DNA of 30,112 nt from Candidatus Aenigmatarchaeota archaeon (GTDB lineage Archaea > Aenigmatarchaeota > Aenigmatarchaeia > CG10238-14 > SCSR01), in contig JAWBTW010000009.1 in NCBI GenBank assembly GCA_039000165.1, positions 1-30,112 on the forward strand, given 5' to 3'. The notes under the pieces are model-generated. The model saw nothing but the letters and a program-made list of their open reading frames with translations, was not told where the DNA came from and searched no databases. Both the position numbers and the translations under genes were made by a program. Positions 14,476-26,949 of this stretch are shown here, piece after piece; the stretch's first letter is position 1; every line of letters begins with the position of its first letter.

Positions 14476-15030
14476 ATGCTCGAAAGTTTAATCGAAGCGA
14501 TAAAATCTTTCATAATATCTTCTGGGGATTTTGGAATTTTTTTCGGTAATTTCTTAGCTTCAAGTATAATACCAATTCCTTCTGAAGCTGTTTTGTTTGT
14601 TCAAGGTGCTTCTGGCTTAGAAATAGTTAAAGTAACAATTCTAGGAGCAATAGGTTCAACCTTGGGCTCTTTAGTTTGTTATTATCTTGGAAGATATGGA
14701 AGAAATTTTTTGGAAAAATATGGGAAGTACTTTTTTGTTTCTTCTGAAAAGCTAAAGTTTAGTGAGAAATGGTTTAAAAAATGGGGAAGCTATACTGTTT
14801 TGGTAAGCAGAATCATACCAATAATTCCTTTCAAAATATTTTCAATAGCTTCCGGGATTTTAAAAATGGAGTTAAAAACTTATTTTATTTTAACTCTTAT
14901 TGGCTCGTTTCCAAGATGCTTCTTACTTTCTTACTTTGGCTTTTTAGCTTCTTCCAATATTTATCTTTCGATTTTGGCAATAGCAATTCTTTTTGCTGTT
15001 CCTGCCTTGATAGATAGAATAAAAAGATAG
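14476..15030 (+). CDS. DedA/SNARE-associated family membrane protein
   Basis: IIPIPSEAV, GSTLGSLVCYYLGRYG, SEKWFKKWG, SRIIPIIP. Confidence 0.88.
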   Translation: MLESLIEAIKSFIISSGDFGIFFGNFLASSIIPIPSEAVLFVQGASGLEIVKVTILGAIGSTLGSLVCYYLGRYGRNFLEKYGKYFFVSSEKLKFSEKWFKKWGSYTVLVSRIIPIIPFKIFSIASGILKMELKTYFILTLIGSFPRCFLLSYFGFLASSNIYLSILAIAILFAVPALIDRIKR

Positions 15031-15146
15031 CCCCGAGCGGATTCGAACCGCTGTCACGAGGGTTCTTCCTCATCTTTTTTCAGAGCTTTGATGAGACCAA
15101 AGCCTTATACTAAGCTTCGTATGCTTGGCCGCTGCACCACGGGGCT
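15028..15146 (-). tRNA. tRNA-Gln(UUG) with two introns (29/30: 15105-15116; 37/38: 15063-15096)
   Basis: Minus strand AGCCCCG TG GTGC AGCGGCCAA GCAT A CGA[12 nt]GG CT TTG G[34 nt]C CCTCG TGAC AGCGG TTCGAAT CCGCT CGGGGCT A. Central splice helices ATAC/GTAT and CTTT/GAAG. Confidence 0.92.
15063..15096 (-). ncRNA. tRNA-Gln intron, candidate minimal box C/D guide for Um34
   Basis: Guide ATCAAAGCT (15092-15084) antisense to G30-G37 plus the first intron base; box D CTGA (15083-15080); AAGATGA (15076-15070); N+5 position pairs with U34. Confidence 0.7.
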
Positions 15147-24385: not shown

Positions 24386-24445
24386 AGCTTCTTTCGTTTT
24401 ATCACCGTATAATAATATATTGGTTTACCATAATATTATAGATAA

Positions 24446-24527
24446 GCCCCGATAGCATAGTGGTAATGCGCCCGCCTCGTATATTCAAGAAAGCGGGAGA
24501 TCGAGGGTTCGAATCCCTCTCGGGGCT
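24446..24527 (+). tRNA. tRNA-Thr(CGU) with 10-nt 37/38 intron (24482-24491)
   Basis: GCCCCGA TA GCAT AGTGGTA ATGC G CCCGC CT CGT A[TATTCAAGAA]A GCGGG AGATC GAGGG TTCGAAT CCCTC TCGGGGC T. Confidence 0.92.
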
Positions 24528-24547
24528 TTGAAAAAAGGAGGGAAAAA

Positions 24548-24838: not shown

Positions 24839-24924
24839 GCGCTGGTAGTCCAGCCTGGTTAAGACGCAGAACTTAGCGGAACCCTGCCACGGCTGAAACG
24901 CGGGTTCAAATCCCGCCCAGCGCA
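24839..24924 (+). tRNA. tRNA-Gly(GCC) with 12-nt 29/30 intron (24870-24881)
   Basis: GCGCTGG TA GTCC AGCCTGGTTA AGAC G CAG[AACTTAGCGGAA]CC CT GCC AC GGCTG AAAC GCGGG TTCAAAT CCCGC CCAGCGC A. Confidence 0.92.
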
Positions 24925-26831: not shown

Positions 26832-26949
26832 GCAGGGGTTCCCGAGTCTGGTTAAAGGGGCAGGACTCAAGTCAGACTTGAGTTTTGATCCAAGATGAAA
26901 GAAATCCTGTGGCTTAGTGCCTTCCTGGGTTCAAATCCCAGCCCCTGCA
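26832..26949 (+). tRNA. tRNA-Leu(CAA) with 32-nt 37/38 intron (26872-26903)
   Basis: GCAGGGG acceptor/CCCCTGC A; CAGGA CT CAA G[intron]A TCCTG; long variable arm; CTGGG TTCAAAT CCCAG. Confidence 0.92.
26872..26903 (+). ncRNA. tRNA-Leu intron, candidate minimal box C/D guide for Cm34
   Basis: Guide GACTTGAGTT (26875-26884) antisense to GACTCAAGTC (26864-26873); box D-like TTGA (26885-26888); AAGATGA (26892-26898); N+5 position pairs with C34 (26868). Confidence 0.68.

Follow-up and report, generated by a model that had tools for sequence, protein, structure and literature searches.

The 30,112-nt stretch of DNA analyzed here (the window) comprises positions 1 to 30,112 of contig JAWBTW010000009.1 from Candidatus Aenigmatarchaeota archaeon (GCA_039000165.1), a genome of 783 kb in 25 contigs with a G+C content of 33% and an estimated completeness of 91.6%. 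In the intergenic region bounded by ORF ends at 15030 on the plus strand and 15327 on the minus strand, the window contains a tRNA-Gln(UUG) gene interrupted by two introns, with a run of T residues after its discriminator base (Table 1). When both introns were cut in silico, ARAGORN called a 73-nt tRNA-Gln(ttg), and no valid tRNA-Gln call was returned with just one intron removed. The uncut gene was missed both by ARAGORN without its intron option and by Rfam at the gathering threshold. With introns permitted, ARAGORN miscalled the raw gene as tRNA-Leu(taa) with a 46-nt intron, an identity that we rejected because a long variable arm is absent and because the two-intron parse yields a clean tRNA-Gln. 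A search of sequencing runs with this DNA matched zero RNA runs and 12 DNA runs, the latter from hot-spring metagenomes.

Table 1. Coordinates of the tRNA-Gln(UUG) gene, its introns and the elements of the putative guide module, and of a second module-bearing gene in the window
Feature	Position	Strand	Basis or remark
tRNA-Gln(UUG) gene, 119-nt precursor, two introns	15028..15146	-	Sequence reading; ARAGORN after intron removal
Intron 1, 12 nt, position 29/30, hBH-loop type (4-bp helix between 3-nt bulges)	15105..15116	-	Direct reading
Target strand, tRNA nt 30-37	15097..15104	-	Anticodon UUG 15100..15098; wobble U34 at 15100
Intron 2, 34 nt, canonical position 37/38	15063..15096	-	Contains the entire guide module
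5' strand of h' helix, intron nt 2-7	15090..15095	-	Overlaps 5' end of guide
Antisense guide, intron nt 5-13	15084..15092	-	Scripted pairing; kept in 41/41 orthologues
Box D'-like CUGA	15080..15083	-	
A-rich loop of K-loop, 5 nt (AAAAA)	15075..15079	-	
Box C'-like GAUGA	15070..15074	-	Doubles as part of 3' strand of h' helix in this copy
Intron tail, seven bases	15063..15069	-	GAAG 15068..15065 pairs C32-U35; AA 15064..15063 in 3' bulge
tRNA-Leu(CAA) gene, intron with same module aimed at own C34	26832..26949	+	Box and loop 26885-26898

The 37/38 intron contains a candidate guide for U34

Intron 2 had been predicted, from its letters, to be a minimal box C/D guide aimed at the wobble base of its own tRNA; intron 1 did not figure in that prediction. 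The layout given in the original prediction was recovered exactly, on the minus strand: four bases, a nine-base antisense, CUGA, five A residues, GAUGA and a seven-base tail. A pairing script recovered the claimed duplex, in which the antisense forms nine uninterrupted pairs with tRNA nt 30 to 37 and the first intron base. Direct reading identified two of the pairs as G-U (intron nt 13 with G30 and intron nt 6 with G37) and placed intron nt 5 opposite intron nt 1. In box C/D guides obeying the N+5 rule, a guide of roughly 8 to 12 nt lies upstream of box D or D' and the target sits opposite the fifth nucleotide; here the fifth base upstream of CUGA is the A at 15088, and its partner is U34, as had been proposed. 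The script found the same register in 41 of 41 orthologous introns, and precisely this guide:target hairpin appears when the entire precursor is folded to minimum energy. At nine pairs, two of them G-U, the duplex in this copy is short, which counts against a guide function.

Features of canonical C/D sRNAs are present in part. An internal D'/C' motif suited to a K-loop is present at the level of sequence only (CUGA-AAAAA-GAUGA). The terminal K-turn built of box C (RUGAUGA) and box D (CUGA) with its terminal stem is absent, no second GAUGA/CUGA pair occurs at the intron ends, and closure is provided by the anticodon stem. In place of the bipartite, near-symmetric arrangement of two guides of about 12 nt, the intron has one guide only. 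Without the terminal C/D K-turn and without the bipartite architecture, the module is therefore not a plain canonical C/D sRNA.

The original prediction had made the presence of genes for L7Ae, Nop5 and fibrillarin a check on itself, and the genome encodes all three. Nop5 (359 aa, 230 bits) has both the N-terminal and the Nop domains, and its gene adjoins that of fibrillarin (222 aa, 284 bits); L7Ae scored 109 bits. Of 41 related genomes, 39 have a fibrillarin match above 200 bits, and the other two genomes are 71% and 81% complete. A search for an FtsJ/Trm7-type enzyme gave weak, partial matches of 27.5 and 20.4 bits. The splicing endonuclease (95 bits) and RtcB (549 bits) are also encoded.

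The module is conserved among tRNA-Gln(UUG) orthologues

Orthologues were collected in two ways. A BLAST-type similarity search with the whole gene, intron included, covered 41 genomes (this one and 40 relatives, from seven families of one order) and returned 30 loci. By script, 21 of the 30 contain a tRNA-Gln(UUG) gene, and 19 of those 21 genes have a 37/38 intron; the two that do not (L022 and L023) both belong to family f4. A strict pattern was also used, consisting of the anticodon hexamer, a gap, five guide bases, two free bases, TGA, a gap and GATGA. The pattern matched 45 of 118 genomes of the order, against 1 of 118 for its reversed version, and 53 of 371 genomes in a sample of the phylum, all of the same class, against 1 of 371 reversed. 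Leaving this genome aside, matches within the order fell in families f1 (33/69), f5 (10/19) and f2 (1/3), and none occurred among 23 genomes of f4; outside the order, 8 of 253 genomes matched. When the same pattern was run over all genome contigs, at least 120 loci were found, mostly chance bacterial matches, with five tRNA-like loci among the matches listed.

Because f4 lacks the pattern and the two f4 genes sampled lack the 37/38 intron, the module must be dispensable. A relocated Gln guide was looked for at the two f4 loci, and none was found there. Near the tRNA-Gln gene of L022, a reading of the sequence picked out a stand-alone C/D-like RNA that fits tRNA-Lys(UUU), not tRNA-Gln.

Pooling the searches gave 41 distinct intron-bearing tRNA-Gln(UUG) sequences with introns of 28 to 52 nt, of which 18 include a similarity-search locus and 23 came from pattern searches only. 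These relatives are non-independent samples. Moreover, the anticodon hexamer, the five guide bases, TGA and GATGA are fixed by recruitment in the 23 pattern-derived rows, such that their only unbiased columns are d1 and d7 to d9 of the guide, the first box base, the loop and the tail. The original prediction had named loss of the boxes and complementarity in orthologous introns as grounds for abandoning it; in the pooled set boxes, complementarity and N+5 register are all kept. Guide positions d2 to d6 read C (40 of 41), G (41), A (41), A (41) and A (40), and d1, the one-base spacer, is U in 30 introns, G in 9 and A in 2. The box is CTGA in 29 introns and TTGA in 8, so that YUGA accounts for 37 of 41; the remaining four are single degenerate boxes (GTGA, CAGA, TCGA and CTAA) and count against a guide function. 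GATGA is present in 37 of 41 under a search permitting one mismatch. The U expected before GAUGA is mostly an A here, with AA preceding GAUGA in 24 of 41 introns, and this too counts against a guide. The loop between box and GATGA measures 2 to 8 nt and is 5 to 6 nt long in 33 introns.

Contiguous pairing through U34 spans 6 to 11 pairs (median, 9; exactly 9 in 17 introns). The rest of the intron varies: among the 41 there are 37 distinct pre-guide segments, 30 distinct loops and 25 distinct tails. The tail after GAUGA, which is used by the splice motif, is 4 to 16 nt long, and in 30 of 41 the intron ends in GAA. In the 18 similarity-derived sequences alone, the box is YTGA in 14 and the pairing run is 8 to 10.

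The guide helix covaries across the exon-intron junction

The 41 anticodon-arm-plus-intron segments were aligned with MAFFT (alignment A1) and scored against a model of a nine-pair guide helix plus one box pair. In the modeled register, 94.3% of 407 cells were paired, whereas sliding the 3' partner by 1 to 3 columns reduced pairing to 15 to 61%. None of 500 shuffles reached either the observed covariation score or the observed percentage of pairing, and 14 cells showed changes on both sides. By the measure of this alignment, the observation is not chance.

The pairs that the recruiting pattern leaves free are the informative ones. Position d7 faces G36 as G-C in 28 introns and G-U in 13, and G37:d8 is paired in 36 of 41. 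The pair nt31:d2 is G-C in 40 sequences, and in L019 it has changed on both sides to C-G, a compensatory substitution. In 39 of 41 introns the box opens with a base able to pair with the second G of GAUGA (C-G 30, U-G 9), and a box C/D K-turn needs such a pair in its non-canonical stem. The outermost pair, intron nt 1:d9, joins bases of the intron to each other and was A-U 16 times, U-A 10, G-U 4, U-G 2 and G-C 1 on A1, with 5 unpaired. With a minimum loop of 3 nt, d9 paired with intron nt 1 in 30 of 33 cases (U-A 14, A-U 10, U-G 3, G-U 2, C-G 1), whereas pairing with nt 38, the base available after splicing, would be possible in just 13 of the 33. Because d9 covaries with intron nt 1, the selected helix spans the exon-intron junction and its substrate is the unspliced precursor, so that no free circular guide need be invoked.

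The guide fold and the splice motif are mutually exclusive

Intron 2 also forms a textbook hBHBh' splice motif with all pairs canonical, a feature absent from the original prediction. The 4-bp central helix pairs C32-U35 with GAAG near the 3' end of the intron, the two 3-nt bulges are GG|U and AA|C, and intron nt 2 to 7 pair with GAUGAG as the h' helix; together with position 37/38, these are the marks of a bulge-helix-bulge intron. With intron 1 removed, the splice-competent fold was calculated at -35.9 kcal/mol and the guide fold at -30.1. The 5' strand of h' overlaps the 5' end of the guide, and thus the two folds are mutually exclusive.

In this single copy, GAUGA could be explained by splicing alone, and the sequestration of GAUGAG in h' counts against a guide function, as does the greater calculated stability of the splice-competent fold. 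Across the orthologues, GAUGA is kept though its h' partner bases differ and often lie downstream of GAUGA. We conclude that the splice motif does not explain the conservation of GAUGA.

Other pre-tRNAs carry the module with their own antisense

The sequence NTGA-N3-7-GATGA occurs 134 times in the 783-kb genome, counting both strands. Eight copies fall within the 2116 nt of 20 intron-bearing tRNA genes, where 0.18 would be expected, and ahead of five of these copies stands an antisense to the anticodon loop of the host tRNA itself: Gln(UUG), Trp(CCA), Leu(CAA), Leu(UAA) and Met(CAU). The tRNA-Ser(UGA) gene has a sixth such copy in its 5' leader, a region free of any splice motif, four bases ahead of the mature 5' end.

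Pairing of the six guides with the six targets was scored in a matrix whose register sets the fifth base upstream of the box opposite nt 34. On the diagonal, guide and own target formed 9, 8, 9, 9, 8 and 11 contiguous pairs. Off-diagonal cells mostly scored 0 to 5, and four scored 6 to 9 with G-U allowed. The Trp guide reached 8 on Gln; the Leu(CAA) guide reached 8 on Leu(UAA) and 9 on Ser(UGA), on which the Leu(UAA) guide scored 6. Five pre-tRNAs besides Gln thus carry the module, each re-tuned to its own anticodon, which supports the function originally predicted for the Gln intron.

The tRNA-Trp introns of relatives, compared by similarity search, contain an antisense to their own anticodon loop, one base, a CUGA, UUGA, AUGA or CCGA box and a loop in 16 of 20 loci, f4 included. 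About 11 of the 16 continue with GAUGA; the remaining five have just AUGA or UGA in its place, and one of the five (L205) also has a truncated antisense. In the tRNA-Gln(CUG) gene of the genome studied here, the only intron is short and lacks the module. In relative L115, a reading of the sequence found the module in an intron of tRNA-Lys(UUU).

A regular expression for two-motif C/D sRNAs returned only two candidates in the whole genome, with none in the reversed control; the expression is narrow, so the count is no proof that stand-alone sRNAs are absent. One of the two candidates lies inside a tRNA-Ser intron.

Discussion

A 2024 review, in its treatment of introns that guide ribose methylation, names only that of tRNA-Trp, which acts in Haloferax and other Euryarchaeota at Cm34 and Um39. 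According to a 2021 review, Pyrococcus targets position 34 of Leu(CAA), Leu(UAA), Met and Trp with four C/D sRNAs, among which the Trp guide alone is intronic. The function proposed for the Gln module is that of the Trp intron guide (Haloferax volcanii; Pyrococcus sR50) as these sources describe it: both lie in the 37/38 intron of their own target tRNA, are antisense to the anticodon loop and aim at position 34 by the N+5 rule, and the Gln module would likewise use L7Ae, Nop5 and fibrillarin. The Trp guide is described as a full box C/D RNA with two sites, Cm34 and Um39, whereas the Gln introns, of 28 to 52 nt, have one D'/C'-type K-loop and one guide; the tRNA-Trp intron of this very genome carries the same mini-module as the Gln intron.

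Another intron with box C and D elements is that of elongator tRNA-Met in Nanoarchaeum equitans, reported from RNA-seq as a stable, abundant RNA in a paper by whose account only the tRNA-Trp case had been known before (Randau 2012, PMC3491384). It resembles the Gln intron in coming from a DPANN archaeon, in interrupting a tRNA other than Trp and in its box C/D-type elements, and it differs, as described there, in its length of 66 nt, its GC hairpin and the tRNA that it interrupts, Met. The same nucleotide, chemistry and enzyme system as proposed here appear in Pyrobaculum, where sR27 is predicted to target U34 of tRNA-Gln (Lui 2018, PMC6009581), and in Sulfolobus acidocaldarius, where Um34 of tRNA-Gln(UUG) was detected by mass spectrometry and a C/D guide predicted (Wolff 2020, PMC7668247). 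Both of those guides are presented as stand-alone, two-motif and trans-acting, whereas the Gln guide lies inside the intron of its target.

In its architecture, one K-turn motif and one guide, the Gln module is like an engineered hemi box C/D RNP, reported as active but not site-specific, with both motifs needed for specificity (Hardin and Batey 2006, PMC1635284). The engineered particle is synthetic and lost its specificity; the Gln module is natural, tethered in cis and closed by the tRNA body, and the tether and closure might supply the missing specificity constraint.

The original prediction had also suggested that such a guide was undescribed for tRNA-Gln or at this size. That claim stands in part. 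As a C/D target, Um34 of tRNA-Gln(UUG) was already in print in the two reports cited above (PMC6009581 and PMC7668247), so that what appears new, in the literature searched, is the intron location and the one-motif design. A full-text search of main articles (in which the phrase "box C/D" is unsearchable) found no paper on an intron-encoded tRNA-Gln guide or on a natural one-motif intron guide.

We conclude that the 37/38 intron of tRNA-Gln(UUG) is probably (roughly 70%) a box C/D-type guide with a single kink, directing Um34 formation on the precursor before it is spliced. Conservation, register, the parallel modules and the protein genes all point to the single-motif Um34 guide originally envisaged. 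In the unspliced precursor, intron nt 5 to 13 would pair with tRNA nt 30 to 37 and the first intron base, and CUGA-N5-GAUGA would fold as a D'/C'-type K-loop, bind L7Ae and recruit Nop5-fibrillarin. Fibrillarin would then methylate the 2'-OH of U34, opposite the fifth nucleotide upstream of CUGA, after which the RNA may refold into the competing bulge-helix-bulge. Presumably as the last step, the splicing endonuclease and RtcB would remove the intron, possibly as a circle. Against such a guide also counts the absence of a second, terminal C/D K-turn and a second guide, given the in vitro specificity result as reported (PMC1635284).

The main rival, which we consider unlikely, takes the antisense hairpin and K-loop to be a structural or chaperone element of the precursor that would bind L7Ae and shield the anticodon loop, perhaps to set the order of folding, keep other enzymes off or control when splicing occurs, and would guide no methylation. 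The single K-turn-type motif fits such an element, since single-site C/D complexes were reported to be non-specific in vitro (PMC1635284); the covariation across the exon-intron junction bespeaks a selected cis structure, not a chemical outcome, and mutually exclusive guide and splice folds are what a timing switch would require. Such an element would nevertheless leave unexplained the one-base spacer and the register setting N+5 at position 34, held in all 41 Gln introns and across six different pre-tRNAs. It would also leave unexplained why the module falls here in tRNAs (Trp, Leu CAA, Leu UAA, Met and Gln) for which box C/D Nm34 is predicted or observed elsewhere, and why Nop5 and fibrillarin are retained in reduced genomes when the regular expression finds only two two-motif C/D candidates. 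A little less probable still is that the module acts only after excision, with the freed intron, linear or circular, serving as a trans guide on other tRNA-Gln molecules; the circular form is that of the original prediction. Endonuclease and RtcB are both encoded, excised archaeal tRNA introns and C/D sRNAs have been reported as circles (in a review and in PMC3491384), and the RNP of the H. volcanii Trp intron is described in a review as acting in trans. The preference of d9 for intron nt 1 (30/33) over nt 38 (13/33), however, indicates that the selected duplex needs an unspliced target, and the Ser(UGA) version, in a 5' leader, would not be released as a circle by splicing. A variant in which the module acts in trans on another precursor is possible.

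The reading we disfavor, and hold to be very improbable, is that boxes and complementarity are by-products of the bulge-helix-bulge motif or arose by chance in an AT-rich intron. In this copy GAUGAG does pair perfectly with intron nt 2 to 7, the tail GAAG must match C32-U35 for splicing, and the genome is only 33% G+C. Against this, GAUGA is kept among orthologues whose h' partners vary, a second, separate stretch already serves as the complement for splicing, and the module also stands in a 5' leader that has no splice motif. Nor would chance account for eight motifs in tRNA genes against 0.18 expected, or for 53 of 371 genomes matched against 1 of 371 with the reversed pattern.

Tentatively, and at somewhat less than even odds, the cis guide for Um34 may be one part of a wider system in which this DPANN lineage methylates wobble riboses through self-guiding precursors. 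One-kink cis mini-guides, in introns (Gln, Trp, Leu CAA, Leu UAA and Met, with Lys UUU in a relative) or in a leader (Ser UGA), would assemble single-K-loop RNPs on unspliced RNA and take over most of the role of stand-alone C/D sRNAs. Tethering to the tRNA body, or the pairing of two precursors across a Nop5 dimer, would confer site specificity, and the fold switch would enforce an order of methylation first and splicing second. If the guide reading holds, intron-encoded methylation guides, with tRNA-Trp as the one textbook case, would now include tRNA-Gln, within a set of six or more pre-tRNAs from a single small genome. Nature would be using a one-motif box C/D architecture judged non-specific in vitro, which raises the question of how fibrillarin is positioned. 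Genome-reduced DPANN archaea would, moreover, have a reason to keep both tRNA introns and the genes for fibrillarin, Nop5 and L7Ae.

In practical terms, tRNA finders misread genes of this kind, and C/D sRNA finders that demand two motifs will overlook such guides. For guides that adjoin a K-loop and do not match their own tRNA, targets in rRNA were also predicted, and the predictions were not significant, because 299 of 500 shuffled guides find a nine-pair site in 16S plus 23S rRNA with G-U allowed. Two all-Watson-Crick rRNA matches remain as leads.

Mini-guides in other pre-tRNAs

Mini-guides, in which a stretch antisense to the anticodon loop of the same tRNA is followed by an NUGA box, a short loop and GAUGA (K-loop type), were found in further pre-tRNAs of the genome, among them tRNA-Leu(CAA) and tRNA-Ser(UGA). 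The guide in the tRNA-Leu(CAA) intron forms nine contiguous pairs with its own anticodon loop, and the fifth base upstream of the box (N+5) lies opposite C34. The guide and K-loop of tRNA-Ser(UGA) are placed in the 5′ leader, not in the intron, and the element stops four bases short of the mature 5′ end. The leader guide forms 11 contiguous pairs with the anticodon loop, with U34 at N+5.

Among relatives, manual reading of the sequence indicated that an intron of a tRNA-Lys(UUU) gene (locus L115, contig CAZERL010000037.1) contains a mini-guide module aimed at U34. At locus L022 (relative genome G035, family f4 of the same order), a stand-alone C/D-like RNA is located approximately 400 nt downstream of an intron-less tRNA-Gln and has the order AUGAUGA, guide, UUGA, loop, and GAUGA. 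Its guide, likewise judged by manual reading, matches the anticodon loop of tRNA-Lys(UUU), not that of tRNA-Gln.

Features of the window and of other contigs (C1, C8, C13, C14) of the genome under study
Feature	Location	Strand
tRNA-Gln(UUG) second intron, 12 nt, position 29/30	window 15105-15116	-
tRNA gene, short anticodon-region insertion (~10-23 nt)	window 24445-24528	+
tRNA gene, short anticodon-region insertion (~10-23 nt)	window 24839-24924	+
tRNA-Leu(CAA) gene, mini-guide in 37/38 intron	window 26832-26949	+
tRNA-Leu(CAA) intron UUGA, 5-nt loop, GAUGA	window 26885-26898	+
tRNA-Ser(UGA) gene, two-motif C/D-like intron	C1:43454-43599	-
Guide and K-loop upstream of tRNA-Ser(UGA)	C1:43604-43617	-
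tRNA-Ser gene, two-motif C/D-like intron	C14:6986-7124	-
tRNA-Cys(GCA) intron with UUGA-AAAAAA-GAUGA	C13:14410-14514	-
AUGA-AAA-GAUGA inside 23S rRNA gene (C8:296-3556)	C8:1148-1159	-
Gap of ~2.3 kb, 16S rRNA gene to tRNA-Ala, rRNA operon	C8:3973-6331	

The second intron of tRNA-Gln(UUG)

The 29/30 intron of tRNA-Gln(UUG) comprises a 4-bp helix and two 3-nt bulges, with a 5-nt loop replacing h′ of the hBHBh′ splice motif. It is restricted to the same-genus copies (loci L004-L007), and the tRNA-Gln(UUG) of other genera carries D-arm insertions instead. The minimum-energy fold predicted for the precursor with the 29/30 intron favored the guide hairpin; with that intron removed, the predicted fold favored the splice motif.

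Boxed introns lacking a match to their own anticodon

The tRNA-Ser introns on C1 and C14 (59 and 53 nt, respectively, by ARAGORN) contain a central CUGA-N4-UGAUGA and, judged by sequence, look like two-motif C/D sRNAs. Neither intron has guides that match the anticodon of its tRNA. In the C1 intron, the D′ guide can form 9/9 Watson-Crick pairs with 16S rRNA near the 3′ end (index 1428 of 1550), a kind of match that is common by chance at the threshold used. In tRNA-Cys(GCA), the bases 5′ of UUGA showed no complementarity to the tRNA's own anticodon loop. Neither of the two tRNA genes with short insertions in the window contains a K-loop element, and the identity assigned to each by ARAGORN differs with and without the intron option.

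Elements in the rRNA operon

The 11 bases 5′ of the AUGA-AAA-GAUGA within the 23S rRNA gene can form 11/11 Watson-Crick pairs with 16S rRNA (index 932 of 1550). The 23S gene spans 3261 nt where its model has 2987 positions, and the 16S gene spans 1550 nt where its model has 1478; both genes therefore contain insertions. The AUGA-AAA-GAUGA may be part of such an insertion or of the native rRNA structure. We note that several box-loop-box elements are also present in the operon spacers (C8:3618-3738 and 4385).
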